Below, piece after piece: positions 1,310 through 55,514 of a stretch of 61,450 nt of DNA. The DNA comes from Candidatus Uhrbacteria bacterium RIFOXYB12_FULL_58_10 (GTDB lineage: Bacteria; Patescibacteriota; Patescibacteriia; UBA9934; GWF2-40-263). The notes under the pieces were generated by a model. The model had not been told where the DNA came from. It searched no databases and saw only the letters and a program-made list of their open reading frames with translations. The stretch covers positions 1 to 61,450 of the forward strand of contig MGFA01000021.1 of assembly GCA_001791645.1 (NCBI GenBank). Reading direction: 5' to 3'. Each line of letters begins with the position of its first letter. Positions within the stretch are counted from its first letter, which is position 1. Both the position numbers and the translations under genes were made by a program.

Positions 1310-2218
1310 ATGTGGTGGATCATCATAGGGCTCGTTGCCCTCCTCGTCATCACTGCCATCATTGCCACGACCAAGGTATGGAACCTCCAGGAGAAGGTCG
1401 CCGGGCTCGAGCGCGAGCAGAAGCAGTCGGCGAACACGACGTCCGAGACGCTCAGGCAGAAGGATCGGCTCATCGAGACGTTCGAACGCGACCTGCGCGT
1501 ACTCAACGACCACGACGCCGCGCTCCAGGCGAAGCTCGAAGCGATGCATTTGGCTGCGATGCGCTTCTGCGCCAGCGCCAAGGACATCTACTACGCCAAC
1601 GAGCATGACCCCGAGGGCTGGCAGGCGAAGCGTGGGTACGGAGTGCAAAAAGACTCCGGAGCACTCTGGTACTGGAACACGACCAAGCCGACCAGTGCGA
1701 CCGCCGAGGAGATCCTCTCCTGGAAGCCGACGGTGGACGAGTGGATCGAGTTCGCCAACAGCATTTCGGCTCACGCGGAAATGAACAAGAAGCAGTGGTG
1801 GGAAAAGGTGGAGGAACGTCGGGCGCGTCAAGCTGCACGTCGCGACCTCAACATCAAGTTCCTCCAGAACCTCCTGAGCCCGCACCGGGACATTCTCTCC
1901 GGACACGGGGGAGGCTTGAGCAGCGTGACTATCGACAAGGATCAGGATCTGCGGCTTCTGCAATTCCTCGAGGGTCTCCGGCGACTGATCGAGCTCGACC
2001 ACAAGGAGAATCCAGCTGACCCCTGGGGGCCGCAGGGGGTCGAGCACCACCTGCTGCATAAGACCTCGTTCACGGGCGCACTGCTTCGTCGTAAGCTCAT
2101 GGACCTCGTGACGCACCACAACCAGGAGTATATGGCCATCCTCGACAGGCTCCCGTCCGACATTGCGCAGTACTTCCTGCGCCAGACAGTCGCGGAACCG
2201 GTCGCAGCGGCTGGCTGA
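1310..2218 (+). CDS. Hypothetical protein with N-terminal membrane anchor and coiled coil
   Basis: 302-aa ORF, AGGAG before the ATG, hydrophobic N-terminus, GC3-biased codons. Confidence 0.75.
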   Translation: MWWIIIGLVALLVITAIIATTKVWNLQEKVAGLEREQKQSANTTSETLRQKDRLIETFERDLRVLNDHDAALQAKLEAMHLAAMRFCASAKDIYYANEHDPEGWQAKRGYGVQKDSGALWYWNTTKPTSATAEEILSWKPTVDEWIEFANSISAHAEMNKKQWWEKVEERRARQAARRDLNIKFLQNLLSPHRDILSGHGGGLSSVTIDKDQDLRLLQFLEGLRRLIELDHKENPADPWGPQGVEHHLLHKTSFTGALLRRKLMDLVTHHNQEYMAILDRLPSDIAQYFLRQTVAEPVAAAG

Positions 2219-2409
2219 TAGCAGCAGATAGACTCGCGCACCCGCGCTTGTCGGCAGACGTACTCGTCGCCGCCTCCGGGTGCGTTTTGCTTTCTTTGTT
2301 CTTATTACCCATATTTACCTCCTTCCCAGGACTAGGCACCCAGGACAGATGTGGCATTATTGTTCATGCCACATAACAAGGCAAACATATGGAGAATACA
2401 GGGAGCTTC

Positions 2410-2762
2410 GTAATTCACAGCTCGCAGGAGCTATTCGATCATGTGCAGGAGAATCTTGGCTTGATCCCCAAATGTCACATGGATCAAAGGGATTCTCGTT
2501 CACCAGATTATTCTCATGTGACGCATGCAATGCAGGAATCACCGCCGAGGAGAAAGTAAAGAATCTCAGAGATGGAACGGTAAGACGCTACGTCTATTAT
2601 CACTGCACAAGGCAGTTAGAAAAGCTCCAGCGATTACTGGCCGTAGTATCCAAGCTGGATTCGAACCAACAAAATGCCTTCATCATGCCTCTCGAACAGC
2701 TCAAAAGCCGCATCATCTTGAAGGACGACCGTCTGATCGTTGAAAAGACTAGGAAAACCTAA
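2410..2762 (+). pseudogene. Frameshifted remnant of a large serine recombinase (end of recombinase domain plus Zn beta-ribbon)
   Basis: SQELFDHVQENLGLIPK in one frame, then GSKGFSFTRLFSCDACNAGITAEEK...RRYVYYHCT in another; no catalytic N-terminus; next to a tRNA 3' end. Confidence 0.7.
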
Positions 2763-2789
2763 GGGTCGCCAAACGATCAACCTCAATCG

Positions 2790-2821
2790 AAAACCCGCAC
2801 TCAATGAAGAATGCGGGTTTT
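2790..2821 (-). terminator. Hairpin downstream of tRNA-Gln
   Basis: AAAACCCGCA...TGCGGGTTTT inverted repeat. Confidence 0.6.
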
Positions 2822-2862
2822 CTTGGTCACCCCCTGTCCCGGTCTGTAGGAACAGGTCGTGA

Positions 2863-2936
2863 TGGTTCCGGGACATGGATTCGAACCATGATTAAGGGAT
2901 TCAGAGTCCCTCGTCCTGCCGTTAGACGATCCCGGA
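2863..2936 (-). tRNA. tRNA-Gln(CTG)
   Basis: TCCGGGA/TCCCGGA acceptor stem, anticodon arm GGGA-CTCTGAA-TCCC, GGTTCGAATCC T arm, encoded CCA. Confidence 0.95.
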
Positions 2937-3064
2937 ATGGTCAGATTGTGCGGGCAGAATATCAACGTTTCTGGAATATGTCAACGAGCGCGAGGTGTTG
3001 AAAACAAAGAGACGACCGCGGGCATCGCCTCCTTGCTCCGAGTGGAGGGGGCGTCTCCTGGTCG

Positions 3065-3274
3065 TCAGTCGCGGAGAAACCGGACAAAGAATCCGGTCGC
3101 CATGGCGATCCCGGGGATTGCCAGGTAGAGGGCCATGGTGGCCAGGTTCCACTCCGGAGGGGTGGAGAACATGGTGTCGCCGCCGAAGCGGACGTCCCAG
3201 ATCCTGATTCCCAGGAGGGTGACGGCCCCGGCGGCGTAGAAAATAAGGAACCAGCGCAGCAGGTTGGACATCAT
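3065..3274 (-). CDS. Small two-helix membrane protein
   Basis: GGAGG 8 nt before the ATG; TTGACA-N17-TATTCT promoter at 3349-3321; two hydrophobic segments. Confidence 0.65.
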   Translation of the reverse strand: MMSNLLRWFLIFYAAGAVTLLGIRIWDVRFGGDTMFSTPPEWNLATMALYLAIPGIAMATGFFVRFLRD

Positions 3275-3394
3275 CAGCATTACCTCCATTGGCCAGCGGG
3301 ATGCGGGCCAAAGTAGACACAGAATAGCACAAAAACACGGTTTTGTCAACCGTGTTTTCATGTAATTTGCTTACCATTATCATCCCAATCATCC

Positions 3395-4396
3395 TCACTT
3401 CGCTCCGGTGGACGGGGACCTCGGCGCTCCGTTCCCCATTGTCGCGACCAATGCGTCCAGTAATTGATTCAACTGAACGCGGGAAGAGGCGGTGTGAAGG
3501 GCGTCGCGGAACCGTTTGGCGCCGGGGATGCCCTTGAAGTACCAGGAGAGATGTTTGCGGAACGTGACGACTCCTCGCTCGCCGTATTGTGCGACGTGCA
3601 GGTCGAGGTGACGCTTGACGGTCGCGACGCGCTCCTCCATGGAAACGACGCGCGGCGGTCGGCCCGCGAGAACATCATCGATTTGCGCGAAGATCCACGG
3701 GTTGCCGAGTGCGCCGCGCGCGACGAGAATTCCGTCGCAGCCTGAGACCGCGAGCGCCTCCTGGACAAGTTCGGCCCTGTGCACGTCGCCGTTGCACAGC
3801 ACGGGAATCGATACGGCTTCCTTTGCGCGACGGATCGCGGTCCAGTCCGCGATGCCGGCGTATCCTTGCGTTTTGGTTCTGCCGTGGATCGTGATGAGGT
3901 CCGCGCCAGCGGCCTCGAGGACCTTCGAAAACTCGATGCACTCGGCCGGGTCGGACCAGCCAAGGCGAATCTTGATCGACAACGGAACCGATATGACACT
4001 CTTCATCGCGCGGACGATTTTCGCCGCGAGCTCCGGTTCCTTCATGAGCGCCGCCCCATTGAAGTTGTGTACGATCTTATAGACGGGGCAGCCCATGTTC
4101 ACGTCAAAGCCCTCGGGCGCATGCCGTTGCGCGATGACGCGCGCGGCCTCGGCCATGGTCGCCGGATCAGACCCAAAGATTTGCTGGATGAGCGGCCGTT
4201 CCTCCGGGTGGATATCCGTCATCCCGAGCGTCTTGTCATTTCCGCGCATCACGGCCTCCGAGGACACCATTTCACGGAAGACGACCCACGACTCTCCAGT
4301 TTCCTTGACAATGCGACAAAACGCCGAGTCGGTCATGTCAGCCATCGGCGAGAGTGCTATAATCGGTTTAGGGAGCGCGGACCAGTCCAATTTCAT
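3395..4396 (-). CDS. dusB: tRNA-dihydrouridine synthase
   Basis: LSPMA, DVNMGCP, GAALMK, KIRLGW, TIHGRT, NGDV, ARGALGNPWIF motifs. Confidence 0.92.
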   Translation of the reverse strand: MKLDWSALPKPIIALSPMADMTDSAFCRIVKETGESWVVFREMVSSEAVMRGNDKTLGMTDIHPEERPLIQQIFGSDPATMAEAARVIAQRHAPEGFDVNMGCPVYKIVHNFNGAALMKEPELAAKIVRAMKSVISVPLSIKIRLGWSDPAECIEFSKVLEAAGADLITIHGRTKTQGYAGIADWTAIRRAKEAVSIPVLCNGDVHRAELVQEALAVSGCDGILVARGALGNPWIFAQIDDVLAGRPPRVVSMEERVATVKRHLDLHVAQYGERGVVTFRKHLSWYFKGIPGAKRFRDALHTASSRVQLNQLLDALVATMGNGAPRSPSTGAK

Positions 4397-4728: not shown

Positions 4729-6089
4729 AGATTTCGTTTCATGGGGCCAACAACGAGGTGACGGGATCCTGTTTCCTGCTGACGGCAAACGACGCGCATG
4801 GCAAGGAACACCGCCTGCTCGTAGACTGCGGCATGTTTCAGGGCGAGCGCATGTGCGGGGATAAAAATATGTCGCCCTTCGGATTTGATCCAAGCTCGCT
4901 TGACGCGGTGTATGTGACGCATCCGCACGCCGACCACACCGGCCGTTTGCCAAAGCTGATCAAGGAAGGGTACGCGGGGCCGATTACCATGACCCACCCG
5001 TGCAAGGCGCTCACCAAGGTGGTGCTCGACGACGCCTATCACATCATGTCGGAGAACGCCAAAAAGTGCGGCGACAGGGTGCTGTATGAGCGCGAGGACC
5101 TTGAGACGCTTGAGGCACGGACGACCGGAATTGGATATCACGAGGAGATCGAAGTCGCTCCTGGAATCACGGTGATGTTTCATGATGCCGGGCATGTGCT
5201 TGGGTCCGCGTTTATTTCGTTTGAGGCGGAAGGGAGACGCGTGGTGTTTTCGGGCGACGTCGGCAACGACTACGTGCCGATTTTGCCGGATACGGAGCCT
5301 ATTTCAAGGGCGGACGTCGTGGTGTGCGAGGCGACCTACGGGCACCGCGTGCACGAGCCGCCGACGGAACGCGCTTCCAAGCTGCGCGCGGCCATCGAGG
5401 AAACGATTCACGCGGGAGGCGTGTTGCTGATCCCCGCATTTTCGATCGAGCGCACCCAGGAGCTTCTGTACGAGATTGACATAATGCTCCGCACGCTCAA
5501 GACGAGCGTCCCCATGTACCTCGATTCGCCGATGGCCATTCGTGCCACGGAAATTTATCGTCACTTCAAGGAGTATCTCCGGTTTGACACGCCGATCCTT
5601 TCCGAGCCGGACCGCGACTTTTTCTCGTTCCCAAATTTGCACGAAACTCTGCTTGTCGACGAGTCCAAGGCGATCAACGACGTGAAAGCCCCAAAGGTCA
5701 TTATCGCGGGATCCGGAATGATGTCCGGCGGGCGCATCATGCACCACCTCATGCGGTATCTTCCGGATCCGAAATCGCGCGTGCTGATCATCGGCTATCA
5801 GGCCGCCGGGACGCTCGGTCGAAAAATCTACGAGGGCGCGAAGACCGTGCGAATCTACGGGAAGGAAATCGAGGTGCACGCGGGCGTGGCTGCCATCGGC
5901 GCGTTTTCCGCGCATGCGGACATGAACAAGCTGACGCGCTGGCTGCAACCGGAGGACGGAAATGTTCCGAAAAAAATTTTTTTGGTGCACGGTGACCCGG
6001 AGGCAAAGGAGGTATTCGCCACGCACCTGCGCCATGAGCTGAAAACGAACGTGGTGATTCCGGCGTTCCAGTCGAGTCACGAGATATAG
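4725..6089 (+). CDS. MBL-fold beta-CASP ribonuclease (YSH1/TTHA0252-like)
   Basis: VDCG, THPHADHTG, AGHVLGSA, FSGDVG, EATYG, FSAHAD, LVHGD motifs. Confidence 0.92.
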   Translation: MKISFHGANNEVTGSCFLLTANDAHGKEHRLLVDCGMFQGERMCGDKNMSPFGFDPSSLDAVYVTHPHADHTGRLPKLIKEGYAGPITMTHPCKALTKVVLDDAYHIMSENAKKCGDRVLYEREDLETLEARTTGIGYHEEIEVAPGITVMFHDAGHVLGSAFISFEAEGRRVVFSGDVGNDYVPILPDTEPISRADVVVCEATYGHRVHEPPTERASKLRAAIEETIHAGGVLLIPAFSIERTQELLYEIDIMLRTLKTSVPMYLDSPMAIRATEIYRHFKEYLRFDTPILSEPDRDFFSFPNLHETLLVDESKAINDVKAPKVIIAGSGMMSGGRIMHHLMRYLPDPKSRVLIIGYQAAGTLGRKIYEGAKTVRIYGKEIEVHAGVAAIGAFSAHADMNKLTRWLQPEDGNVPKKIFLVHGDPEAKEVFATHLRHELKTNVVIPAFQSSHEI

Positions 6090-6185
6090 TCGTGACACTC
6101 GGCTGTCCGTTTGACACGCGTTTTGCTATTGCGTACGGTATTGTTCTGTCGCGAATGGACGCGACGTAAAATGACTGGAGGGAGC

Positions 6186-6578
6186 ATGCGAGTTTCCCAA
6201 GAAGGCGCCCGCCGGATGGACTGGGACGAGCTCCTGTGGGAAATCCCGGTCATTGGACGAGACTTCGAGGTTTTGCTTCCCATCGAGAACCTCGAACTTC
6301 TGCGCGGACCCATGGGGTCGATCACGCGCGCGGGAGACGACGTGCGCGTGCAGCCCGAGCTGCTTGTTCGCCAGTGGGTTGGGCACGCGCCCGAGTTCAT
6401 GGAGATCCGAGAGGGGTCGGGCTTCGTTCGCGTGGGTCTCGTCGATCATCATGCGCTGCTGCTTCCGGACACATCTATCGTGATCGTCGATCGCGCGATG
6501 TCTCCGGTGCATCGTCTCTGCGTTCCGGGCGACAACGTGCTCGCTTCATCCCGCTTCGGTCACATCGCCTCGGACTGA
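6186..6578 (+). CDS. Hypothetical protein
   Basis: GGAGGGAG before the ATG, TTGACA-N17-TACGGT at 6111-6139, fills the intergenic space. Confidence 0.6.
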   Translation: MRVSQEGARRMDWDELLWEIPVIGRDFEVLLPIENLELLRGPMGSITRAGDDVRVQPELLVRQWVGHAPEFMEIREGSGFVRVGLVDHHALLLPDTSIVIVDRAMSPVHRLCVPGDNVLASSRFGHIASD

Positions 6579-6643
6579 CGGTCCGGGCTTTTTCTTTCCA
6601 ATGGATGGACGAAACGACCGGTTTCCGCTAGGATACTCACGAT

Positions 6644-8434
6644 ATGATCGACCAGAAGCACATCAGAAACTTTTGCATCATCGCGCACATCGATCACGGA
6701 AAATCCACGCTCGCGGACCGTCTCTTGGAAGTGACCGGGACCGTGGAAAAACGAAAGATGAAGGAACAGATGCTCGACTCGATGGAACTTGAGCGCGAAA
6801 AGGGGATTACCATCAAGCTCGCGCCGGCGCGCATGGGACACAAGGGCCATACGCTCAACCTCATTGACACGCCCGGACACGTGGACTTCACCTACGAGGT
6901 GTCGCGCTCGCTCGCGGCCGTGGAGGGCGCGGTACTGCTCGTGGATGCCACGCAAGGCGTGCAGGCGCAGACCATCGGTAACCTGTATCTCGCGATGGGC
7001 GAGGATCTCACCATCATTCCTGTCCTCAACAAAATCGATCTTCCGGCCGCGGACATTCCGCGACGCACGGAAGAACTCGTGAAGTTGCTCGGGTGCGATC
7101 CTTCGGAGATCTTGCACGCGTCCGGAAAAACCGGCGCGGGCGTGCCGGAGCTGCTTGATGCCATCGTCGACCGCATTCCGTCGCCGACCGGCCAGGTGGA
7201 CGCCCCAGCGCGCGCGCTTGTTTTCGATTCCAAGTACGACGATTACAAGGGCGTGGTCGCATATGTCCGCGTGGTCGACGGCGCGTTCAAGCGGGCCGAG
7301 AACATCATCATGATGGCGACGCGCGCCGAGGGCGAGATCTTAGAGTTGGGCGCGCTGACTCCGGGGTATGCGCCGATGCCCCTTCTTGAAACGGGACAGA
7401 TCGGCTACATCGTCACCGGGCTGAAGGACATTCACGCGTGCGGCGTGGGCGATTCCATCACGGTCGCTAGCCAGCCGACGCGCGAGCCACTTCCGGGCTA
7501 CAAGCAGGTGCGGCCGATGGTGTACGCGGGGATCTTTCCAAAGGAGGGAAATGATTTCGAGCATTTACGCGAGGGCATGGAACGGTTGAAACTCAATGAC
7601 GCGGCGCTCACCTATGAACCGGAACATTCTCCCGCGCTCGGCTACGGGTTCCGCTGTGGGTTGCTCGGCATGTTGCATTTGGAAATCTTGAAGGAGCGCC
7701 TGCGTCGCGAGTTCAATCTCGATCTGATCGTCACGGTCCCTTCCGTCGCGTATCGCGTGAACGTGAAAGGGAAGGAATCGATGGTCATCAAGAGCCCCGT
7801 GGAATTGCCGGATCCATCCTCCATCGACTCCATTGAGGAACCGTGGGCAAAGGTGGATCTTGTGACCCCGTCCGAGTATGTCGGTGCCATCATGCAGTTT
7901 TGTCAGGAACGGCGCGGCGCGTACAAAGACACCGAATATCTTTCGACGCGACAGACGATCCTCCATTACGAGATGCCGCTTTCCATGCTCATCGTTGATT
8001 TTTATGACAAGCTAAAGAGCATCACGTCGGGATACGCGTCCATGAACTACGAGCTGCTCGATTATCGCGTCGCGGACGTGGTGCGGCTTGACATTCTCGT
8101 TGCGGAGGAGCCGGTGGAAGCGCTCTCAACGCTCACGTATCGTGACGACGCGGAGCGCGTGGGACGACGCGTGCTCTCCTCGTTGAAAAATGATATCCCG
8201 CAGGAATGGTTCGTCATCAAGTTGCAGGCGGCCGTGGGCGGGAAGATCGTGGCCTCGGAGCGTATCAGCGCGATGCGCAAGGATGTGACGGGATACCTGT
8301 ACGGCGGCGACGTGACACGCAAGAAAAAACTGCTTGAAAAGCAAAAGAAGGGGAAAAAGAAAATGGCCGAGCTCGGCAAGGGGAGCGTTGACATCCCAAC
8401 GAACGCGTATTTGAACGTGTTGAAACGCGGGTAA
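6644..8434 (+). CDS. lepA: Elongation factor 4
   Basis: IRNFCIIAHIDHGKSTLADR, DTPGHVDF, NKID, GGDVTRKKKLLEKQK. Confidence 0.98.
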   Translation: MIDQKHIRNFCIIAHIDHGKSTLADRLLEVTGTVEKRKMKEQMLDSMELEREKGITIKLAPARMGHKGHTLNLIDTPGHVDFTYEVSRSLAAVEGAVLLVDATQGVQAQTIGNLYLAMGEDLTIIPVLNKIDLPAADIPRRTEELVKLLGCDPSEILHASGKTGAGVPELLDAIVDRIPSPTGQVDAPARALVFDSKYDDYKGVVAYVRVVDGAFKRAENIIMMATRAEGEILELGALTPGYAPMPLLETGQIGYIVTGLKDIHACGVGDSITVASQPTREPLPGYKQVRPMVYAGIFPKEGNDFEHLREGMERLKLNDAALTYEPEHSPALGYGFRCGLLGMLHLEILKERLRREFNLDLIVTVPSVAYRVNVKGKESMVIKSPVELPDPSSIDSIEEPWAKVDLVTPSEYVGAIMQFCQERRGAYKDTEYLSTRQTILHYEMPLSMLIVDFYDKLKSITSGYASMNYELLDYRVADVVRLDILVAEEPVEALSTLTYRDDAERVGRRVLSSLKNDIPQEWFVIKLQAAVGGKIVASERISAMRKDVTGYLYGGDVTRKKKLLEKQKKGKKKMAELGKGSVDIPTNAYLNVLKRG

Positions 8435-41961: not shown

Positions 41962-42885
41962 TTATCTCCTCAGTCCGCGGCCGGTGACTAGGGTGCCGAT
42001 GAGCGAGACCACGAGCGATGCGACGATAATCGCGAATGGGATCCAAAGATGGTTTGCGAAGGGAAGCCCCTGCACGTTCATTCCGTAAAAACTCGCGATG
42101 AGCGTTGGCGGCATGAGCGAAACCGAAATGACCGTGAGCGTGCCGAGACGGTCGTTGGTGCGATGCGCCAGCACGGTTTCGTTCACCTCGAACAGGGTGT
42201 CCACGGTCGCGTGGAGATTGGCAACGTTCACGCGATAGCCGTCGAGCTTGTCCTCAAGATCCTCGAAGTACACGCGGTGCTCCTCGGGAAGGAAGTCGCG
42301 CTTCATGTCGCCGAGTTTTCGGATCACGCGGCGCTGCGGCTCGAGCGAGTGCAGGAGGTGGAGCACGTTGCGGCGAAGCGCGCCGAGGCGGATGGTGGTT
42401 TCGCGGGCGTTGTGTTCCGCGACCTCTTCCTCGAGCAGGTGTGTTTCTCGCATGAGTTCCGCGATGATGCGGCCGTATTCCTCGAACACCGCGTCAAGCA
42501 CGTGGTAGGTGAGCAGGCTGACGGGCTGGCCGGACTTTGTCGTTTCACGCCGCATGCGCGGCGACTGCCTGACGAGTTGAAAATATCGGTCGAGCGCCTC
42601 GATCGGCTCGGCCGCGGCCGTGACAAAGTAGGTGTTTTCCAGAAACATCGCGAAGTGCCTGTTGCGAAGCTCGCGTCGCACGCGGTCGTATCTTGGGACG
42701 ATAATGATCGCCATCGCGTAGTACTTGTATTCGTCGAGCTTCGGAAAGTCCGTCGCCTCCGCAATGTCCTCGTAGTCGAGCGTATGAAATTTAAATGTGG
42801 CGCGCATCGCCTCCTGCATGGGCGCGTCGCATGGCGATGCGTGCCACCAGGTGTATGCCTTTTCTTCGAGGTTTGGAATTTCCAT
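41962..42885 (-). CDS. corA: CorA-family Mg2+ transporter
   Basis: PPTLIASFYGMN and two C-terminal TM helices. Confidence 0.88.
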   Translation of the reverse strand: MEIPNLEEKAYTWWHASPCDAPMQEAMRATFKFHTLDYEDIAEATDFPKLDEYKYYAMAIIIVPRYDRVRRELRNRHFAMFLENTYFVTAAAEPIEALDRYFQLVRQSPRMRRETTKSGQPVSLLTYHVLDAVFEEYGRIIAELMRETHLLEEEVAEHNARETTIRLGALRRNVLHLLHSLEPQRRVIRKLGDMKRDFLPEEHRVYFEDLEDKLDGYRVNVANLHATVDTLFEVNETVLAHRTNDRLGTLTVISVSLMPPTLIASFYGMNVQGLPFANHLWIPFAIIVASLVVSLIGTLVTGRGLRR

Positions 42886-46015: not shown

Positions 46016-46110
46016 GCCAACCTTTATCCCTTGCGTCGCGGAATCGTCCTTGCTATACTCTCCACGCCGGAACCATTCCGGGGTAGCTCAGCGGTAGAGC
46101 AGTGGACTGT

Positions 46111-46578
46111 GGCACGCGTTTGTCGACTTTATTGAAAAATATGGCCGACAAGCGAACCTACGCCCAACGTGCAGAAACGATAAAGCGCGCAGTCAGTAAG
46201 CGTCGGAAGAACGTTCGGACGCCGGCCATCGAGTATCTTGGTGGCAGGGGTCAGAATTGCATACTGATTTGCGCGAATTGTCATCGCGAAGCGCACGCGG
46301 GCATTACGCAGCTTCCGGCGGAGACGTCGGAATGAAACAGGGTGAATTGTCCCGCGTAAAAAGTGGGATCCCGCAACAGGCGGTGACTGGAAGCCGTCGT
46401 CGGTAACGACACGGTAATCAGCAGCCAAGCTCGATCATCGGGTCGAGAAGGTTCAGAGACTATCCTTTCGAGGAGTACCTCTCCGGCAAACGCTGGGGCG
46501 GGAAGCGCCCTGCATCCATGCTCGTTTGAGAAGGATGAAGATATAGTCCACGCTTTCGGGAAACCGAGAGACCACGTG
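46111..46578 (+). ncRNA. Group I self-splicing intron (468 nt) at tRNA position 35/36
   Basis: U before the 5' splice site, terminal G, Q AATCAGCAGCC (46416), R GTTCAGAGACTA (46451), S AAGATATAGTCC (46538), P3 CAGGGTG/CGCCCTG, P9 GAAA hairpin, IGS ATTACGCAG (46303). Confidence 0.93.
46141..46335 (+). pseudogene. Internally deleted HNH homing-endonuclease ORF inside the intron
   Basis: ...AIEYLGG joined almost directly to CILICANCHREAH; the first CxxC and the HH core are missing. Confidence 0.7.
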
Positions 46579-46613
46579 TAATCCATTGGTCATGGGTTCG
46601 AATCCCATCCCCG

Positions 46614-46718
46614 GAGCCATGAGAAGGCGTGTGAGGTGACCCACATGCCTTGTCAAAAAGTCGTCATTAAAAAATGGCGATTTTTTGTTTAATCCTTGAG
46701 CAAATAGCGACCCTTGGT
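46614..46718 (+). repeat. Direct repeat R1 (105 bp) starting in the tRNA-Asn 3' end
   Basis: 103/105 identical to 50596-50700; contains the hairpin AAAAAGTCGTCATT...AATGGCGATTTTTT. Confidence 0.93.
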
Positions 46719-46930
46719 GGCTTGCCAAGAATTCCAAAACTCCCAGAACACAAATTAATGGCCGTCGATGCCGTAGAGGCTCGTAACGGGTCTATATTAG
46801 CCGCATACAATTCCTATGTCCGAAATGCTGGTTAGTTCTTTGGTTCAACTGTGCATCTTGCACAACAGGAGTCGCGGAGGAGGCAAATAAATATCTAATA
46901 ATTCTAGTTCGTGTTACTATTTTCTACGAT

Positions 46931-47602
46931 ATGCTATCAAAAACAGAATTGAAAAGATTAGAAAAGAGAGCCTGCAAGCCGACTCCACTAAACGAAAAAG
47001 GATTTAATCCAAAAGCAAACATTCCTTTCGGATGTACGACCGATGCCGTACGAAAAGCAATGCAGGACTATTTGGATTTTTTGAGCCATATAAACCTAAA
47101 GCTTCATTCGAAAAATATCGAGAGACTCGAATCTTTTGTGATGATGGCTAATTTCAGCAGTATAGTAGGTGAATTCATGGGTGCTAGCATTCCAAAGTAC
47201 TGTCAGACAATATTACGGAACGAATATCATAATGGTCATCCAGATTTGATCCCAACGAATCGCTACCCGAAAAATTCAATTTTGCATGGTGAGGACGGAA
47301 TCGAGATAAAGGCTTCAAGACACGTCAGTGGGTGGCAAGGTCACAACCCAGAGGCTTGTTGGTTACTGGTTTTCATTTTTGAAAGCAATACACCACGCGA
47401 TTCAGCAGCAGGCAGTCCTCCCATTCCATTCAAATTCAAAGAAGTACTTGGAGCGCAACTTAAAGTCGAGGACTGGACTTTTTCTGGTCGCTCAGCGACG
47501 AGTAGGCGAACTATCACCGCGAGTGTGAACAGGAGTGGGTATGAAAAGATGAAAAGGAATTGGATTTATCGAGATGACTCATCTTCAAGTGTCGTTGAGT
47601 AA
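46931..47602 (+). CDS. Putative type II restriction endonuclease (PD-(D/E)xK fold)
   Basis: GHPDL...GIEIKAS motif, 223 aa, convergent with and overlapping a DNA methyltransferase gene. Confidence 0.72.
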   Translation: MLSKTELKRLEKRACKPTPLNEKGFNPKANIPFGCTTDAVRKAMQDYLDFLSHINLKLHSKNIERLESFVMMANFSSIVGEFMGASIPKYCQTILRNEYHNGHPDLIPTNRYPKNSILHGEDGIEIKASRHVSGWQGHNPEACWLLVFIFESNTPRDSAAGSPPIPFKFKEVLGAQLKVEDWTFSGRSATSRRTITASVNRSGYEKMKRNWIYRDDSSSSVVE

Positions 47603-49129
47603 CGACAACTTCGGCACGGCCTTTTTTGCCAGATCAAAATACTCTGAGTTCACTTCAATTCCAATTGATTCAAGTCCACACGCGTTTGCCGCAGCGAGCG
47701 TCGATCCAGATCCCATGAATGGATCTAGTATGATTCCCTTACCCAAAGGCAAAGAGGCATAAACGATTTTTCGCAAAAACGATTGCGGTTTTAGACTTGG
47801 GTGCCCTGCGAGTTTTCGTTCATGTTGAGAAGTGCGTTCGCTAGGAATTAAATCCTCGAACGGATTGCCATTGGGAAGGCGGCGAAGTCCTCCTGTTCCA
47901 AATTTTCGCAAAGAATCTTGGACGCGCATGCCAGCGGGGAGCTTACTACGAAAGATACCCCACGGTTCATAGCATCCCCTTGGTAAGGAACAAACGTTCG
48001 TGAATTCTTCCTCAGCATTTTTTGGTCTGTCCCCACCGCGCAAAGTTCGTACTAATCGCATTGTCTGCCCCCTAAACTCAAGACCGCCGTCTTCCAGAGC
48101 TCTATAAACAAGAGGTGCAATGAAAGCATTGTTCGCAATGAACACATGCCCTCCCGGTTGAAGAATTCTGCCGGACTTCTCAGCAAGTTTTCTGAAAAAA
48201 TTGTAAATTCTAGAGCGTTCTTTTTCGTTAAGTGCTGTAAATCTAGGTAACGGTGATCGGGTATGGCCATCAAAGGAAGGCGGAACTCTCCAAACACCCC
48301 CGCTTCCGTTTTTCATTTTCTTGAGCTGATCCGTATCAAACTCTACAACACCGTAAGGCGGATCTGTAACTATTGCGTGAATGCTATGTGGAGCGGCATT
48401 ATCCATCCATTCAAAGCAATCCGCATGGAATAATCGAGACAAGCCGATCTTTTCGGACGGGTAATCGCGACGTAGTTGGTTGGTTTTTTGGTTATCCAGT
48501 AGCGATTCTTGAAAAAGTGTTTTTGGTACTTCACTGGTAAAACTTTTAATCACATCTACAACAGTTCCTTGAATTGTGAGACGGGATGGTTGAATAAAAA
48601 TTGGCTTTAAATCTGGATTGGCTGGCTGAAGTCTGACCCGATTCTTTTCTTTGTAATATTGTTTTAATGTAGTTTCTGATCCATCAATCAACGCGACGAT
48701 TTTTTGACCGTTCTCTGCTACTTGTTGATTTCGAATAATTACAACATCGCCGTCATTTATATTTTCGTCAATCATGCTATTGCCAGAGACTCGAAGAGCG
48801 TAGGTGTCTCCGGACCTTGGCAGCTTTGATCGTGGAACTGCTATTGTTTCATTCTCTGCAATCGCCTCGATTGGCTTTCCAGCGGCGATCGTTCCGAGTA
48901 ATTGTACTTGGACCAGAGAGTCGTTATCCGGCAAGGTAAGAGCTCGGGCTCTATTTTCGACCTTCTCAAGATGACCGCCATTTTTTAACTTTGAAACATG
49001 AAAATGGGCTGTCGAAACAGAAGCAAATTTAAAATGTTTCTGGATCTCCTCGAGAGATGGCGAATATCCCTTCTTTTTAGAAGAACTTCTTATGAAGTCG
49101 AGTACTTCTTTTTGACGTTTGGTTTGCAT
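47585..49129 (-). CDS. LexA repressor fused to a beta-class (N4C/N6A) DNA methyltransferase
   Basis: LexA wHTH (TKRQKEVLDFI...GYSPSLEEI), IAAG cleavage site, GNSM Ser, TTLK Lys; then DPPY, HPSLKP, DPFMGSGST in the same frame. Confidence 0.93.
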   Translation of the reverse strand: MQTKRQKEVLDFIRSSSKKKGYSPSLEEIQKHFKFASVSTAHFHVSKLKNGGHLEKVENRARALTLPDNDSLVQVQLLGTIAAGKPIEAIAENETIAVPRSKLPRSGDTYALRVSGNSMIDENINDGDVVIIRNQQVAENGQKIVALIDGSETTLKQYYKEKNRVRLQPANPDLKPIFIQPSRLTIQGTVVDVIKSFTSEVPKTLFQESLLDNQKTNQLRRDYPSEKIGLSRLFHADCFEWMDNAAPHSIHAIVTDPPYGVVEFDTDQLKKMKNGSGGVWRVPPSFDGHTRSPLPRFTALNEKERSRIYNFFRKLAEKSGRILQPGGHVFIANNAFIAPLVYRALEDGGLEFRGQTMRLVRTLRGGDRPKNAEEEFTNVCSLPRGCYEPWGIFRSKLPAGMRVQDSLRKFGTGGLRRLPNGNPFEDLIPSERTSQHERKLAGHPSLKPQSFLRKIVYASLPLGKGIILDPFMGSGSTLAAANACGLESIGIEVNSEYFDLAKKAVPKLSLLNDT

Positions 49130-49154
49130 AGTCTTGACGGCGTTAAGTTCACTC

Positions 49155-49183
49155 ACCATAATAGAAAAAAAGTAGAAAGTCAA
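49155..49183 (-). promoter_or_regulatory. lexA-MTase promoter with candidate operator
   Basis: TTGACT-N17-TATGGT with TTCTA-N6-TTCTA filling the spacer. Confidence 0.6.
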
Positions 49184-49210
49184 TCACTAACTTATTCACA
49201 CCTTTATCGT

Positions 49211-49417
49211 ATGGCAAAGTCTAACAAAAATTCCGGAAAACCATGGAGCTCCTCTGATCAGAACCAACTCGGGAAGCTAGCAAAGCAAAATACACCAACG
49301 CGGGTTATTGGTTTGAAGCTTGGTCGAACACCTGATGGTGTTCGTGGCATGGCTCAGAAGCTCGGGGTTAGCCTTAAACCTACGAATCAGGCCCCGTACA
49401 ACCGACGAAAATCGTAG
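49211..49417 (+). CDS. Small basic Myb/HTH-like protein (68 aa)
   Basis: GKPWS...IGLKLGRTPDGVRGMAQKLG. Confidence 0.75.
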   Translation: MAKSNKNSGKPWSSSDQNQLGKLAKQNTPTRVIGLKLGRTPDGVRGMAQKLGVSLKPTNQAPYNRRKS

Positions 49418-49430
49418 TCAATTTTTGAAT

Positions 49431-50306
49431 ATGGCACTTTTAAACAAAAATCACATCAAATCGGTTGTTGCTGTTGGCACACTGAAGGACGACGGAAGTT
49501 TTGCGTGTGACTCCACAAGTTTCCTCGTCGGCTTCTTAATCACAAATAGTGATGATCCGAAGCAAAAGCTTTATAGAACTTTTTTGGTGACAAACAGACA
49601 TGTATTTGAGAAACGAAAAAAAGCGTGGCTACGATTCAACAAAGACGACGGCAAAGGAATGATTTTTGACATCGATCTGAATTTTGAGAATGGTGATACG
49701 CGATGGTTGGCGCATCCCGATCCAGAAGTCGATCTCGCACTACTTAGCATTAGCCCGGCCGCGCTTAAACAAAACAACGTGCAACCCACCTTCATTTCTG
49801 AGGAAATGTTTGGATACAGCGGTAAATTTGAGGAAATTGGTATCGCTGTTGGTGACGAGGTGTTTGCGATTGGATTTCCAATGGGATTCGCGGGTGAGGT
49901 ACAAAACTATCCGTGTGTTAAGGCTGGTCTTATTTCCAGGATAGACCAGGAGATAATCAAGAAACGAAAGGCATTCGTCGTCGATTCATCTATCTTCCCA
50001 GGTAATAGTGGCGGCCCAGTGATTCTAAAGCCCACCATCACATCATTAAGCGATACGAAAGCCGTCGGTCAGCCATTTTTACTTGGGGTTATTAGTGGTT
50101 ATCTCACATATAGCGAGCAGCTTTTTACGCATCAGACGAATCCTCCAACAGTGGTAAGCTCGACCCGGGAAAATTCGGGTTTAAGTTTTTGTGTCCCGAT
50201 GGATTTTGTAAGGGAAATATATGATATATGGCTGATGAACCAAAAACCGGTGGAAGAGCCACAAAAAAGTACCACACCAGAGGATCTTAAAGAAAAGGCG
50301 AGCTAG
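49431..50306 (+). CDS. Trypsin-like serine protease, no signal peptide
   Basis: TNRHV (His), DLAL (Asp), PGNSGGP (Ser). Confidence 0.88.
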   Translation: MALLNKNHIKSVVAVGTLKDDGSFACDSTSFLVGFLITNSDDPKQKLYRTFLVTNRHVFEKRKKAWLRFNKDDGKGMIFDIDLNFENGDTRWLAHPDPEVDLALLSISPAALKQNNVQPTFISEEMFGYSGKFEEIGIAVGDEVFAIGFPMGFAGEVQNYPCVKAGLISRIDQEIIKKRKAFVVDSSIFPGNSGGPVILKPTITSLSDTKAVGQPFLLGVISGYLTYSEQLFTHQTNPPTVVSSTRENSGLSFCVPMDFVREIYDIWLMNQKPVEEPQKSTTPEDLKEKAS

Positions 50307-50309
50307 AGC

Positions 50310-50432
50310 AATCTCATATTTTGGCCGATGGGTGTCCGAGTATTCCAACGCCTGCGCGTCGGTCAAATCCTCTCCCCGCTCCTTCTTCCAAAGCTCCTTA
50401 AACGACTGAATCCGTTCGTCATTTGTGCGCAT
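50310..50432 (-). pseudogene. Fragment of a small mobile-element-type protein
   Basis: MRTNDERIQSFKELWKKERGEDLTDAQALEY, then the frame runs on antisense into the protease gene. Confidence 0.4.
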
Positions 50433-50595
50433 AGGATTATTGTGAAAAGCCCTTGAAACCATCGTATCCATGATTTGAGACACAGGCCATTCTCGTGTCT
50501 CATTTGTCTCATTTCGATGAGACCCGGGTGCCAGTTTGACCCCTCTAAAAGACCCCTCAAACATTGTCGTAAAGTGAGTTCGAGACCCGTACGCC

Positions 50596-50799
50596 GAGCC
50601 ATGAGAAGGCGTGTGAGGTGACCCACATGCCTTGTCAAAAAGTCGTCATTGAAAAATGGCGATTTTTTGTTTAATCCTTGAGCAAATGGCGACCCTTGGT
50701 AGACCATCAAAAAACCGAACCGCCTGGGACGCAAAGTCGTCGAATTTTTCTTAAACGCCCGAAACTGCAAATTCGCCCTATTTTTTCGGTTCGATCCCC
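50596..50799 (+). repeat. Repeat R2 (R1-like part plus R3-like part)
   Basis: 50596-50700 matches R1; 50677-50799 matches 55387-55510; T-loop-like GTTCGA at both ends. Confidence 0.92.
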
Positions 50800-50850: not shown

Positions 50851-51774
50851 ATGAAATCCATCATTCTCAACACCGATGCCAAGATGCCCATTTTGGGATT
50901 AGGCACTTGGAATGCTCCGAAAGATAAAGTTGGCTTGGCTGTAAAACAAGCTTTATTAGACTTCGGGTATTCACATATCGATTGCGCCCATGTTTACGAG
51001 AACGAAAAAGAAGTCGGACAGGTTTTTCATGAAGTATTCAGTACAGGTCAGCGAACAAGAGAGGAAATCTTCGTGACGAGCAAGCTTTGGAATTACGATC
51101 ACGCGAAAGAGGATGTTGTGAATGCGTGCAAGCAGACGTTAGTCGATTTGCAACTCAATTATCTTGATTTGTATCTCATGCATTTTGGCGTCGCTTCGCC
51201 TCATGGCATGGGTATCGAGCCGCTCGATGCCAATGGCGTGCTGATAACGGCAAAAGTTTCCATTCGTGAAACATGGGAAGCGATGCAGAAGCTTGTGGGT
51301 ATGGGTCTCGTCAAAGCGATTGGTGTCTCAAACTTCACCGTACCAATGCTTGTTGATCTCCTGACGTACGCCGAGATCATCCCGGCGATGAATCAGATCG
51401 AGCTTCACCCATACAATCAACAGACCAAGTTAGTTGAATTCTGCAAACAACAGAATATCGCCGTGACCGCTTATTCTCCGCTCGGTTCTCAAGCAGAGAT
51501 GAATAATGGCAAGCTGGCTCTCCTTGAGGATGAAAAAATTAATGAAATTGCAGCCGCTCACGGAAAGACTCCGAGTCAAATATTACTTCGTTGGGGTATT
51601 CAACGAGAAACCGTTGTGATCCCAAAAAGCACGACCCTCGAGCATATCAAGGAAAATAATGAGGTGTTTGATTTTATTTTGTCGGATGACGAGCTTTTGA
51701 AGATTTCGTCTTTAGAGCGCGGTCTTCGCTATGTGGATCCGTATGAGTGGTGGAAGATTCCATATTTTGGATAG
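50851..51774 (+). CDS. Aldo/keto reductase
   Basis: GLGTW, IDCAHVY, TSKLW, YLDLYLMH, IGVSNF, NQIELHP, IPKS. Confidence 0.96.
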   Translation: MKSIILNTDAKMPILGLGTWNAPKDKVGLAVKQALLDFGYSHIDCAHVYENEKEVGQVFHEVFSTGQRTREEIFVTSKLWNYDHAKEDVVNACKQTLVDLQLNYLDLYLMHFGVASPHGMGIEPLDANGVLITAKVSIRETWEAMQKLVGMGLVKAIGVSNFTVPMLVDLLTYAEIIPAMNQIELHPYNQQTKLVEFCKQQNIAVTAYSPLGSQAEMNNGKLALLEDEKINEIAAAHGKTPSQILLRWGIQRETVVIPKSTTLEHIKENNEVFDFILSDDELLKISSLERGLRYVDPYEWWKIPYFG

Positions 51775-53047: not shown

Positions 53048-54109
53048 ATGGAAGGACGAAATAGCCCAGACGCGAGTTCATCACTTGAAAATCGAGATAA
53101 ACGCAGCGAAGTGCTACGGAGGCTGATGAAATACGCAAAGAATGTCGAAGGATTCCAAGGAAAAACCGCTGGAGAAGTTTTTGACTCAAAAAATGAACAG
53201 TCGCGTAGAGAGCTCCTGAAAGATTTATCTGCTGAACAGTACTGTCAGCTAATAGCGGGTATCAACGGTGTTTTGCGAGGAAGAGATCAGAAAGATTGGG
53301 ACATGGACGGCGTGGGAGTGACAGCCGCCGGACACGAAGTAGTTGGAAAACATATTTTTCCTCGTCACGAGGATAAAATAGAAATCATGACGAAAGTATG
53401 GGAAGCGGCACAAGCAATGAATGTCGAAGGACGTGATCTGGAAGACATCGGCATGCTCCTTGGCTCTATGCTTGTGGAGGTGCATCCATTTGCCGATGGC
53501 AATGGTCGTACGAGCCGTCTTGTTTATACCTTGGTAAAAGATGGTTACTCAGAAGAAAAGTTGAGGGCTGTTTTAGGAGAAGAGGGTCGAGAAGAAGTCG
53601 ATATGGCGCTTACGAAGGTGGACGTCAACGAGCTTTTTGAGAAAAAACATGGAAGAGGAAACGTCGTGGTAAATCCGGAGAGCATCCATGGGATTCTGCC
53701 TGACGACGGAGCTCCCCCATATAGCGGTCTAACTTTCCCCGAAGGTACCGATCAGGAGGTACATGAAAGCATCATAGAGGCGGGAAGAAACGATGAGCGT
53801 ATCTTTACGGCTGCCATTTTGGAGTTTCTTCGCACACGTGAATGGTTGAGTGCGCAGGAACTCGTAAAGTCGTACGGGCAAAGAAAAGTCCTTTTGGTTC
53901 AAAAGCTTCTCTCTGTACTTACCGCGGAGGAGACCAATGAACTCGAAAAAACCTATTGGAATCTCAAAAAGACCTATACGGAAGAGATGATCGACATCTT
54001 CGTTCACCCCGACAAGCCGGAACACAAAGTCAGGGGTGACGATTCTGAAAGACGCTTGCTTGATGTCTTCAAGCAGAGGATCGCCGAGCGAACTATGCTT
54101 ATCGAGTAG
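53048..54109 (+). CDS. Fic-domain protein
   Basis: Canonical HPFADGNGRTSR. Confidence 0.88.
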   Translation: MEGRNSPDASSSLENRDKRSEVLRRLMKYAKNVEGFQGKTAGEVFDSKNEQSRRELLKDLSAEQYCQLIAGINGVLRGRDQKDWDMDGVGVTAAGHEVVGKHIFPRHEDKIEIMTKVWEAAQAMNVEGRDLEDIGMLLGSMLVEVHPFADGNGRTSRLVYTLVKDGYSEEKLRAVLGEEGREEVDMALTKVDVNELFEKKHGRGNVVVNPESIHGILPDDGAPPYSGLTFPEGTDQEVHESIIEAGRNDERIFTAAILEFLRTREWLSAQELVKSYGQRKVLLVQKLLSVLTAEETNELEKTYWNLKKTYTEEMIDIFVHPDKPEHKVRGDDSERRLLDVFKQRIAERTMLIE

Positions 54110-54278
54110 GTTTAGGCCTTAGTAGCTAATTGAAAACTGAAACTTTGGAACTTCTCCATGCTCATTTTGACCATCGGATAGATACTCAATAGTTCGGTAA
54201 GTACGTAAGAACTGGAGCCAAGTGGGGCCGACCAGAGCAATTTGGTCGGTTTTACTTTTGCTTATCAATTTCAAATGA

Positions 54279-54330
54279 AACTTTATAGAGTTGTGTATAT
54301 TTTGACTAACTTTATAAAGTTTGATAAAAT
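54279..54330 (+). promoter_or_regulatory. Promoter with two 14-bp palindromic operators
   Basis: AACTTTATAGAGTT (54279) and perfect AACTTTATAAAGTT (54308) within TTGACT-N17-TAAAAT. Confidence 0.72.
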
Positions 54331-54350
54331 CGTCGGGTAACTGAATTCAT

Positions 54351-55289
54351 ATGACGACCCGTCAAAAACTTGAGGTCATAAAAATTTCGTTGGGGGTAAC
54401 CCAAACCAAACTCGCCGAAAGATTCGGTGTGTCTTTTGCGGCATTCAACAGTTGGTGGACCGGCAAATCCGTTCCGCGCCAAAAGATGCTCGCCGCCATT
54501 GAAGATTTATTTTTGGAAGTGACTGGCGAGAAGTTAATTTCTGATGAACAGCTCCTCGCAAAAAAGAAGGAACTGCGCCAAAAGTCGGCCGCACACAAGA
54601 GCATCATCGGAGAAATTTTGGACCATCCGGACATTCGTGACCAATTCATCCTCAAGCTCACCTACCACACGAACCGAATCGAAGGGAGCACACTAACCGA
54701 ACCAGATACGGCTGCGATTTTGTTTGATAATGCTGCATTGCCTGACAAAACCTTGACCGAGCATCTTGAGGCGAAAAATCATCAGACAGCCCTAAATTAC
54801 TTGTTTGAGCACGTTCAAAAAAAAAAGAAGCTTGATGAGGACTTTGTTCTAAAAATCCACGGGATTCTCATGAACGGCGTACGACCGGACGCAGGTTTGT
54901 ACCGTCTTCATGCTGTTCGTATTGTTGGCGCTAATGTACCGACGGCCAATTATCTTCGCATCCCTGATTTGATTCCGGATGTCATGAAAGAAGTCGCGAA
55001 GTCTCAAAAAACGAGTGACATCGTCGGGGTTATAGCCACTGTTCATGCGCGATTCGAACAAATCCACCCATTTTCCGATGGTAATGGCCGAGTCGGGCGT
55101 TTACTCATGAACGCGATGCTTCTTACGGCCAATTTCGCTCCGGCCGTCATTCGTCAGGAACAAAAGCGATTGTATTATACCTATCTCCAGAAAGCTCAAA
55201 CGATAGGCGATTGCAGCCAGCTGGAGGATTATCTCTGTGATGCCGTAAAAGATGGATTTGAAATTTTAGAACGTGTGGATAGGAAATAA
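54351..55289 (+). CDS. XRE-HTH plus Fic protein (class II-like)
   Basis: TQTKLAERFGVS HTH, TNRIEG inhibitory motif, HPFSDGNGRVGR. Confidence 0.9.
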   Translation: MTTRQKLEVIKISLGVTQTKLAERFGVSFAAFNSWWTGKSVPRQKMLAAIEDLFLEVTGEKLISDEQLLAKKKELRQKSAAHKSIIGEILDHPDIRDQFILKLTYHTNRIEGSTLTEPDTAAILFDNAALPDKTLTEHLEAKNHQTALNYLFEHVQKKKKLDEDFVLKIHGILMNGVRPDAGLYRLHAVRIVGANVPTANYLRIPDLIPDVMKEVAKSQKTSDIVGVIATVHARFEQIHPFSDGNGRVGRLLMNAMLLTANFAPAVIRQEQKRLYYTYLQKAQTIGDCSQLEDYLCDAVKDGFEILERVDRK

Positions 55290-55386
55290 CAATAAGATGG
55301 TGAAATATGAAACTCTCACCCTAAAATAACCCCTCAACTATTGCTGAATTCTAGGTCGAGACAAGTTCGTCGAACCATGTTTAAAG

Positions 55387-55514
55387 CTTGAGCAAATAAC
55401 GACCCTTGGTAGTCCACCCAGAAAGCCGAAGCACCCGGGACGCAAAATCATCGAATTTTCCTCAAACGTCCGAAACTGCAAATTTGCCTTATTTTTTCGG
55501 TTCGATCCCCATCC
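55387..55514 (+). repeat. Repeat R3, a diverged copy of the distal part of R2
   Basis: CTTGAGCAAAT...CGACCCTTGGTAG...CCGAAACTGCAAATT...TTTTTTCGGTTCGATCCCC. Confidence 0.88.

Follow-up and report, generated by a model that had tools for sequence, protein, structure and literature searches.

Introduction

Restriction-modification (R-M) systems must hold methylation ahead of restriction, and they occasionally damage their own hosts. Among type II systems, PvuII, AhdI and Esp1396I are controlled by C proteins, and methyltransferases with an N-terminal helix-turn-helix (HTH) domain, such as M.SsoII/M.Ecl18kI, M.EcoRII and M.MspI, autoregulate their own genes; in the type I system EcoKI, restriction is alleviated after DNA damage in a ClpXP-dependent manner. 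To our knowledge, none of the known R-M controls (C proteins, HTH methyltransferases, antisense RNAs) senses the state of the chromosome. Here we analyze a type II R-M pair encoded in a 61,450-nucleotide stretch of Candidatus Uhrbacteria bacterium RIFOXYB12_FULL_58_10 (Patescibacteriota; contig MGFA01000021.1, positions 1 to 61,450; hereafter the window), in which the methyltransferase is joined in frame to a complete and apparently self-cleaving LexA.

The locus resembles M.SsoII/M.Ecl18kI, M.EcoRII and M.MspI in carrying a DNA-binding domain on the N-terminus of the methyltransferase (M) and a putative operator in its own promoter and, as in M.SsoII-type systems, repression of M would be expected to shift the balance towards the restriction endonuclease (R). 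Unlike in those systems, the DNA-binding domain is part of a complete LexA with invariant catalytic residues, which a DNA-damage signal could remove, and one module with its promoter is common to at least 15 methyltransferase clusters. As with the C proteins of PvuII, AhdI and Esp1396I, a small dedicated regulator would time the R-M pair, but the window has no C gene, LexA sits on M and not before R, and C proteins have no sensor-protease domain. In relation to LexA itself (TIGR00498), the module is a full-length match above the model's cut-off, with the same domains and cleavage residues and a promoter layout like that of the host lexA gene; it differs from the SOS repressor in its fusion to an enzyme, in its recognition helix and repeat unit, and in a putative operator that occurs only once in the genome. 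The outcome that we propose, less restriction relative to modification on a damaged chromosome, is that of EcoKI alleviation, whereas the proposed route, derepression of M by repressor self-cleavage in a type II system, is not. Like the S24 repressors CI of phages and SetR of integrative and conjugative elements (ICEs), the module appears to be self-cleaving, private to a mobile element and equipped with its own operator and paired promoters; unlike these, it is fused to the enzyme that it would regulate, and no phage or ICE genes were seen around it among the open reading frames (ORFs) tested between 46 and 56 kb. Autoregulating HTH methyltransferases and C proteins being already known, what differs here is the complete, apparently self-cleaving LexA as the DNA-binding part, together with a shared, portable promoter.

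Results

A complete LexA is joined in frame to a beta-class DNA methyltransferase

The fusion gene occupies a minus-strand frame that is open from 47,585 to 49,183 (532 codons, the first being TTG, in the ORF list). Its most likely start is the ATG at 49,129, because homologs begin there (MLTKRQKEV...) and because the conserved promoter sits within the TTG extension. The M gene so defined spans 47,585–49,129 including the stop codon and encodes 514 amino acids, an assignment that draws on the ORF list, Pfam, NCBIfam, PADLOC and homologs. Pfam finds, in this order and in 532-residue numbering, LexA_DNA_bind (PF01726; 55.3 bits against a cut-off of 23.7, residues 21–81), Peptidase_S24 (PF00717; 101 bits, residues 95–209) and N6_N4_Mtase (PF01555; 76 bits, residues 268–521), and the protein exceeds the 110.95-bit cut-off of TIGR00498, the NCBIfam equivalog model for lexA, with 179.6 bits (182.6 bits in a genome search).

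In 514-residue numbering, and on the minus strand throughout, the winged-helix DNA-binding domain covers residues 3–63 (48,941–49,123) and the S24 domain residues 77–191 (48,557–48,901), with Ser118 (GNSM) and Lys156 (TLK) as its catalytic pair; the S24 region also matches LexA structures, for example 3k2z at 7e-32. Alignment places the predicted self-cleavage site at Ala83-Gly84 (IAAG; 48,878–48,883). A variable linker of poorly conserved columns, inside which stand-alone methyltransferases start, follows at about residues 197–235 (48,425–48,541) and leads into the beta-class N6/N4 DNA methyltransferase domain at residues 236–511 (47,597–48,424), which PADLOC MTase_II matches with 320 bits and in which DPPY (256–259) lies ahead of FMGSGST (471–477), the beta-class motif order. 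The LexA part and the host LexA share 45% identity; the recognition helix of the former, as of the fusions at large, reads S37-V-S-T-A-H-F-H44 where that of the host LexA reads S-P-A-T-V-H-Q-H.

By domain content, residues and score, the fused LexA is complete and apparently self-cleaving. An earlier note on this DNA, made from the letters alone, had described a complete LexA joined in frame to a beta-class methyltransferase in a 514-residue protein, and the domains, residues and motif order all bear it out. It had also suggested that cleavage could free the methyltransferase, which does not hold: because the Ala-Gly pair lies between the winged helix and S24, only the DNA-binding domain of about 83 residues would be released, and the methyltransferase would stay joined to S24. 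Loss of the Ala-Gly, Ser and Lys residues in homologs was an outcome that the note itself had named as counting against its proposal. In all 82 of 82 fused modules, at about 55–75% overall identity, the cleavage site and the catalytic positions keep the same Ala, Gly, Ser, Met and Lys, and the median identity of LexA parts across methyltransferase clusters is 68%. Since these residues are unchanged despite divergence elsewhere, their invariance argues for selection on self-cleavage.

The junction between the two halves is bridged, with 0 differences, by contigs from three other runs, namely X1 (46,676–50,372), X5 (48,075–49,748) and X7 (46,771–48,853), which come from at least two studies, X7 being a run of another study. 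In X1, the sequencing depth of the cassette that carries the pair, bounded by 126-nt direct repeats, is like that of its flanks; contigs of other assemblies break only at these repeats, and the same fusion recurs in independent assemblies. Because contigs from three runs cross the junction, the fusion is not an assembly chimera, a possibility that the earlier note had wished to see checked.

LexA-methyltransferase fusions form a large family

The earlier note had guessed that such fusions might already sit in database records of the candidate phyla radiation (CPR), and had named uniqueness to this strain as an outcome that would count against its proposal. A query with the LexA part matched 3106 proteins of 282–900 amino acids, and the best 120 of these 3106 all combine LexA_DNA_bind, S24 and a DNA methyltransferase domain (N6_N4_Mtase in 119, MT-A70 in one), so that the guess was sound and the fusion belongs to a large family. 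The fusions listed come from Uhrbacteria, Falkowbacteria, Parcubacteria or Paceibacterota, and public records label them 'transcriptional repressor LexA' in some cases and 'site-specific DNA-methyltransferase' in others. When the whole protein served as the query, the 120 matches listed comprised six full-length fusions (69–79% identical) and 114 stand-alone methyltransferases of 298–368 amino acids (62–69% identical over the methyltransferase part).

The nearest relatives of the LexA part were taken from species-representative genomes (best 80 of 183 found). Complete frames of 435–613 amino acids account for 72 of these 80, one frame has 300 amino acids and seven run off their contigs; there was no stand-alone LexA of about 200 residues among these best 80 of 183 relatives. 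A LexA match was present in 246 of 301 sampled genomes of the phylum, and in at least 15 of the 301, the source genome included, it lies in a frame of 447–633 amino acids. The latter figure combines 14 genomes among 150 listed of 321 matches with one from a second search (9/301 at E ≤ 1e-55), and the tallies over the 301 genomes include an unpublished genome (G154) with a stand-alone-size match only.

The 73 complete fusions, that of the window included, fall into 15 methyltransferase clusters. As near-identical LexA parts (up to 95.5% identity) sit on different methyltransferase clusters, the LexA module has been exchanged between systems. One genome (L069) carries two fusion genes (1820–3415 and 5751–7424) less than 6 kb apart, the second of which runs off the contig.

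We found no description of a LexA-methyltransferase fusion in the literature searched, which consisted mainly of titles and abstracts and had supplements and the 2017 paper on the Patescibacteria SOS network outside its range; that paper, by Sanchez-Osuna, Barbe and Erill, may bear on LexA boxes or fusions. The terms LexA, S24, fusion, fused and SOS occur 0 times in a 2026 preprint on CPR methyltransferases, and in passages of a Thermus phage preprint the LexA-like repressors are unfused.

A conserved control block with a putative private operator precedes the M gene

The M promoter (49,155–49,183, minus strand), recognized both by promoter reading and as a conserved block in relatives, is near-consensus, with TTGACT and TATGGT separated by 17 nt. 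Its -35/-10 spacer is filled by a direct repeat, TTTCTAC-N4-TTTCTAT (49,161–49,178, minus strand), which a pattern search and the relatives single out as the fused LexA's putative operator. A DnaA-box-like element, identified by pattern counts, is located upstream of the -35 at a distance of about 8 nt; it reads TGTGAATAA in the window (49,192–49,200, minus strand) and TGTGGATAA in relatives. The order of the block in relatives is TGTGGATAA(C), about 8–10 nt, the -35 (TTGACT or TTGATT, shifted by 2–3 nt in one subgroup), the repeat-filled spacer and the -10 (TATAAT or TATACT).

A relaxed form of the repeat TTTCTAY-N4-TTTCTAT is found at the fusion gene's own promoter in 74 of 80 related loci, and the pattern occurs once in the 1,123,060-base host genome, at 49,161–49,178. 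The promoter of the host lexA gene is organized in the same way, but its spacer holds another unit, GTTCGGT-N4-GTTCGGT, which recurs in inverted form beyond the -10. One relative (L059) is the only fused module in which Q replaces the F of the recognition helix, as in the host LexA, and the repeat unit there is CTTTCGGT. Position, conservation, uniqueness and this one covarying case all point to TTTCTAY-N4-TTTCTAT as the putative operator of the fused LexA. Because this putative operator occurs once in the genome, and because a separate lexA with a different box is present, the fused LexA is, on the evidence of the pattern search, not the global SOS regulator of its source genome. The system is no rarity of this strain but belongs to a large family whose operator is conserved and putatively private.

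TGTGGATAA is the reverse complement of the DnaA-box consensus TTATCCACA. Perfect copies of TGTGGATAA occur in 48 promoter windows, compared with 20 sites elsewhere in the 607,517 bases of the loci; 65 of 78 loci have a relaxed form, and the window's copy, TGTGAATAA, still matches TTATNCACA. The host dnaA gene is preceded, at 53 nt, by a perfect box that points the same way. The element may add a replication-linked input.

A further promoter on the plus strand (TTGACG, 17 nt, CATAAT; 49,134–49,162), likewise found by promoter reading, faces the M promoter so closely that the -10 boxes of the two overlap, and aims at a 68-residue ORF and a protease gene. A near-consensus opposite-strand promoter is present in the leader at 36 of 78 loci versus 0.6% of random segments, and where both promoters are strict their -10 boxes are 3 nt apart in 9 of 10 cases. 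We had considered the palindrome TATACT-N3-AGTATA (24 of 79 upstream regions at no more than two mismatches, versus 10 of 1580 shuffles) as an operator, but the -10 boxes of two promoters that face each other account for it better, AAGTCAA being the -35 of the opposite one.

Several loci depart from this arrangement. In one subgroup (L003, L031, L044, L053, L063, L065–L067, L071–L073, L076–L080 and others) the ATG comes only about 6–7 nt after TATAAT, which suggests leaderless transcripts; there is no space at these loci for an opposite-strand promoter. In L049, L054, L081 and L163 the repeat unit is ATCGAAAGT, present twice downstream of the -10; as the other strand of these loci resembles the main block (TTGACTTTCGAT...), the control block there seems to be inverted relative to the gene.

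The earlier note had advised looking for a separate stand-alone lexA, and the genome does carry one (contig 19, 204 amino acids), together with recA and dnaA. The promoter of this lexA (contig 19, about 42,340–42,440) has its -10 between GTTCGGT-N4-GTTCGGT and the inverted copy, repeats that may constitute the host SOS box; farther upstream is a perfect TTATCCACA, which points towards a divergent metK-like gene. A scan for the host SOS regulon with GTTC-N7-GTTCG proved too noisy at 58% GC, and only the two boxes of the lexA promoter were used.

The partner gene encodes a type II restriction endonuclease fold

The R gene (46,931–47,602, plus strand) converges on the fusion gene, with which it shares 18 bp (47,585–47,602), and encodes a 223-residue protein of the PD-(D/E)XK type, with D105, E125 and K127 as predicted catalytic residues; the ORF, its homologs, an AlphaFold2 model and structural matches all entered into this assignment. 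All of the 34 homologs aligned keep these three residues (HPD...GIEIK), and the 3135 homologs found are without exception unnamed. Pfam, NCBIfam and a sequence search against solved structures gave 0 matches to the nuclease, and PADLOC REase_II matches it at 3.4e-07. The AlphaFold2 model has a pLDDT of 90.3, and the first 12 matches of a wide structural search with it are all type II restriction endonucleases, including NaeI (Z 9.3, rmsd 3.5, 142 residues aligned), SwaI (Z 7.0), SfiI and 3ndh (both 6.5) and EcoRV (5.8). Foldseek with the same model returned nothing at E ≤ 0.001, its best match being again NaeI (2.9e-03). As modeled, the partner is a type II restriction endonuclease fold, with cleavage activity predicted.

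We surveyed the nuclease family in 80 metagenomic loci, seven of which end too soon on their contig to be judged; in all 73 assessable loci, the same methyltransferase family lies convergent just downstream. Judged by its sequences and gene order, the gene pair is a type II R-M system. The convergent 223-residue ORF with its PD...EIK motif and 18-bp overlap had been recognized in the earlier note, and its coordinates and catalytic residues proved correct; the note's reading of the two genes as an R-M pair is likewise upheld by the 320-bit MTase_II match, the endonuclease fold with invariant D/E/K and the convergence of R and M in 73 of 73 loci. Among the ORFs examined upstream of the R gene at 46,931, none in the window is of the C-protein HTH type.

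Fusions recur with restriction enzymes, and the window's pair gained its LexA module

Co-occurrence of the fusions with nucleases, which the earlier note had proposed to score, is common. A convergent ORF lies within 150 bp downstream of the fusion in 63 of 80 loci, often overlapping it by 5 or 17 bp; the remainder comprise eight loci with a co-directional ORF, one with a farther ORF and eight that are not assessable. Many of the partners belong to named restriction-enzyme families: among 71 partners, Pfam recognizes Endonuclease_7 (14), TaqI (11), BglII (9), MamI (3), MutH (3), HindIII (2), HNH (2), Tsp45I (1) and Bpu10I (1), families that may overlap on a single protein. A small HTH gene abuts R in 35 of the 63 convergent loci (two families, classed by eye), and seven of seven tested are HTH_3 (42–72 bits), as in classical C-R operons. 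The divergent neighbors of the fusions are heterogeneous and often of defense type (AbiU2, SMODS, Schlafen-like), and in 37 of 80 loci no divergent neighbor was seen within 200 bp.

The window's own nuclease family is not present in the 80 loci of fusion relatives, and its methyltransferase and theirs are only remote relatives. Conversely, 72 of the 73 assessable loci of the window's R-M family have no LexA. Because the pair is LexA-free in these 72 of 73 loci, the module appears to have been grafted onto it; by this distribution, an ordinary, widespread R-M pair gained a LexA module in a small clade. The sole locus with a LexA relative is L140 (1166–2872, minus strand), where a separate gene for a 220-residue LexA-like S24 repressor ends 15 nt before the start of M; the methyltransferase there is of the window's family and convergent with the same nuclease family. 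At several of the unfused loci (L083–L162), a conserved peptide (...WDKAGKLK..RHP.NGYRLY...) just upstream of M resembles, by eye, an HTH of the MerR/excisionase type.

The R-M pair lies in a low-GC cassette beside a tRNA gene

The source genome (28 contigs, rated 100% complete, 58% GC) is of the Patescibacteria type. At 46 kb of the window the GC content falls from about 0.60 to 0.45, and a repeat search found a 126-nt direct repeat, the left copy of which (46,593–46,718, plus strand) starts inside a tRNA gene, at the 3' end of the latter; the right copy (50,575–50,700, plus strand) is 93% identical to it. Between the two lies a low-GC cassette of about 4 kb, which holds the R-M pair, an ORF of 68 residues divergent from the M gene (49,211–49,417, plus strand; no Pfam or PADLOC match) and a trypsin-like serine protease (49,320–50,306, plus strand; Trypsin_2, and PADLOC defense candidate PDC-S45 at 6.9e-30). 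Trypsin_2 was found in 4 of 44 divergent neighbors, the window counted, which makes the protease not a conserved partner. The cassette appears to have arrived by horizontal transfer. The ORFs tested between 46 and 56 kb, which did not include every small one, revealed no integrase.

A third, partial copy of the repeat lies at 55,378–55,510, and beside the tRNA gene the three copies delimit a pair of low-GC cassettes, one about 4.0 kb and the other about 4.7 kb long. The second cassette contains two Fic/DOC-domain genes, one with HTH_3 (53,048–55,289, plus strand), an aldo-keto reductase (50,851–51,774) and a weak nucleotidyltransferase-like ORF. The tRNA gene (46,077–46,619, plus strand), missed by ARAGORN, is interrupted by a group I intron (Rfam RF00028, 46,334–46,570, 59.1 bits against a threshold of 50), which contains a 77-residue ORF (46,102–46,335) with a weak HNH match. 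Joined by the usual rule (exon end U46108, intron end G46576), the exons give a 75-nt tRNA-Thr(UGU) with tentative splice sites; fixing the sites by joining exons and running ARAGORN did not settle them, as very many joins were accepted.

Discussion

We infer binding, cleavage, trigger and outcome as follows, and consider it fairly probable that the LexA module is a private autorepressor of M and that its RecA-stimulated self-cleavage derepresses methylation upon DNA damage. As a dimer, the module would bind TTTCTAY-N4-TTTCTAT in the spacer of the M promoter and repress it. In a naive cell, the strong M promoter would act first and put methylation ahead of restriction; as the fusion protein builds up, it would shut its own promoter and lower convergent transcription into R. 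RecA filaments on single-stranded DNA, formed at DNA damage, at stalled forks or where the system's nuclease has cut unmethylated sites, would then stimulate self-cleavage at Ala83-Gly84. With the DNA-binding domain lost, the M promoter would be derepressed and convergent transcription into R would rise, the S24-methyltransferase staying in one piece. Methylation capacity would thereby increase relative to restriction, which would amount to restriction alleviation in type II form and would restrain the system from cutting its own host's DNA.

Several observations weigh against this proposal. The invariance of Ser, Lys and Ala-Gly would also be expected if cleavage serves protein turnover only, and the S24-methyltransferase fragment could itself be degraded, which would lower and not raise methylation. 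The repeat might owe its conservation to promoter function or to binding by some other factor. Upstream of R genes, the operator repeat and the DnaA-box-like element were found in 3 of 62 and 0 of 62 cases, respectively, which is the control level. Finally, a C-like HTH gene precedes R in 35 of 63 related systems and, since this separate gene is present, restriction timing there would not need a LexA module.

In an alternative explanation, the module is a dimerizing autorepressor only, like a C protein or an N-terminal HTH, cleavage carries no signal, and the locus is an ordinary autoregulated R-M pair. An operator in its own promoter only would suit it, as would the many relatives in which a C-like HTH gene of the classical kind stands ahead of R as well, and the small regulator-like stretch that is often seen, by eye, upstream of M in unfused members of the window's R-M family. 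A mere dimerization domain, however, would be free to lose the Ala-Gly, Ser-Met and Lys that all 82 modules retain, and we judge this explanation unlikely, though the least so among the alternatives. An assembly or gene-calling artefact, to which the fall in GC at 46 kb and the contig breaks at repeats in other assemblies might have pointed, is refuted by the difference-free bridging contigs of three runs, by the flank-like depth of the cassette in X1 and by the recurrence of the architecture in thousands of independent records; we give it next to no credence.

A suicidal outcome has also to be considered, in which phage replication raises RecA filaments that set off cleavage, degradation of the S24-methyltransferase lets methylation lapse, and the nuclease, being stable, kills the infected cell. 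The cleavage products of E. coli LexA are degraded, R-M pairs can kill cells once methylation is lost, and the loci lie among genes of defense type (AbiU2, SMODS, Schlafen-like, and here the PDC-S45-like protease). Yet cleavage would also lift the repressor off a near-consensus promoter, so that methyltransferase synthesis would go up and not down, and ordinary DNA damage would become lethal to the host. The abortive-defense alternative of the earlier note received no specific support in this analysis, and we think it quite improbable. Slightly less credible still is a role as the repressor of a mobile cassette, in the manner of phage CI or SetR, that silences the opposite promoter and divergent cargo until SOS induction, with the methyltransferase incidental. 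The opposite-strand promoter in the leader at 36 of 78 loci and in the window, just downstream of whose start the operator would sit, is compatible with such a role, as are the 126-nt repeats that flank the cassette at a tRNA gene and the movement of the module between methyltransferase families. It is hard to reconcile with divergent neighbors that are heterogeneous and, in 37 of 80 loci, not seen within 200 bp, with a DNA methyltransferase as the fusion partner in all of the best 120 of 3106 proteins, with the lack of an integrase among the ORFs tested, and with only one relative in a viral collection (one query).

More tentatively than the private autorepressor itself, we propose a Patescibacteria control cassette, composed of the DnaA box, the operator promoter facing an opposite promoter, and the LexA-methyltransferase, that would be portable, swapped among many unrelated type II R-M systems, and would set methyltransferase dosage from RecA filaments and DnaA; this is an idea that we find conceivable but rather doubtful. 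Patescibacteria are reportedly, according to the title of a published report, largely without CRISPR.

Because the fusions are publicly named as LexA repressors or DNA-methyltransferases, reconstruction of SOS regulons in Patescibacteria can be misled by them. The architecture occurs widely (at least 15 of the 301 genomes sampled from the phylum, 3106 LexA-bearing proteins, and 15 methyltransferase clusters among 73 complete fusions), and the candidate operator, promoter and cleavage residues are described in enough detail to be tested simply in E. coli. If our interpretation is correct, a methyltransferase that carries a cleavable SOS repressor would couple DNA damage directly to the balance of restriction and modification; and if the control cassette works as proposed, it would constitute a homeostatic loop, with methylation increased by damage or self-restriction, and a damage-sensing immune checkpoint for R-M systems.

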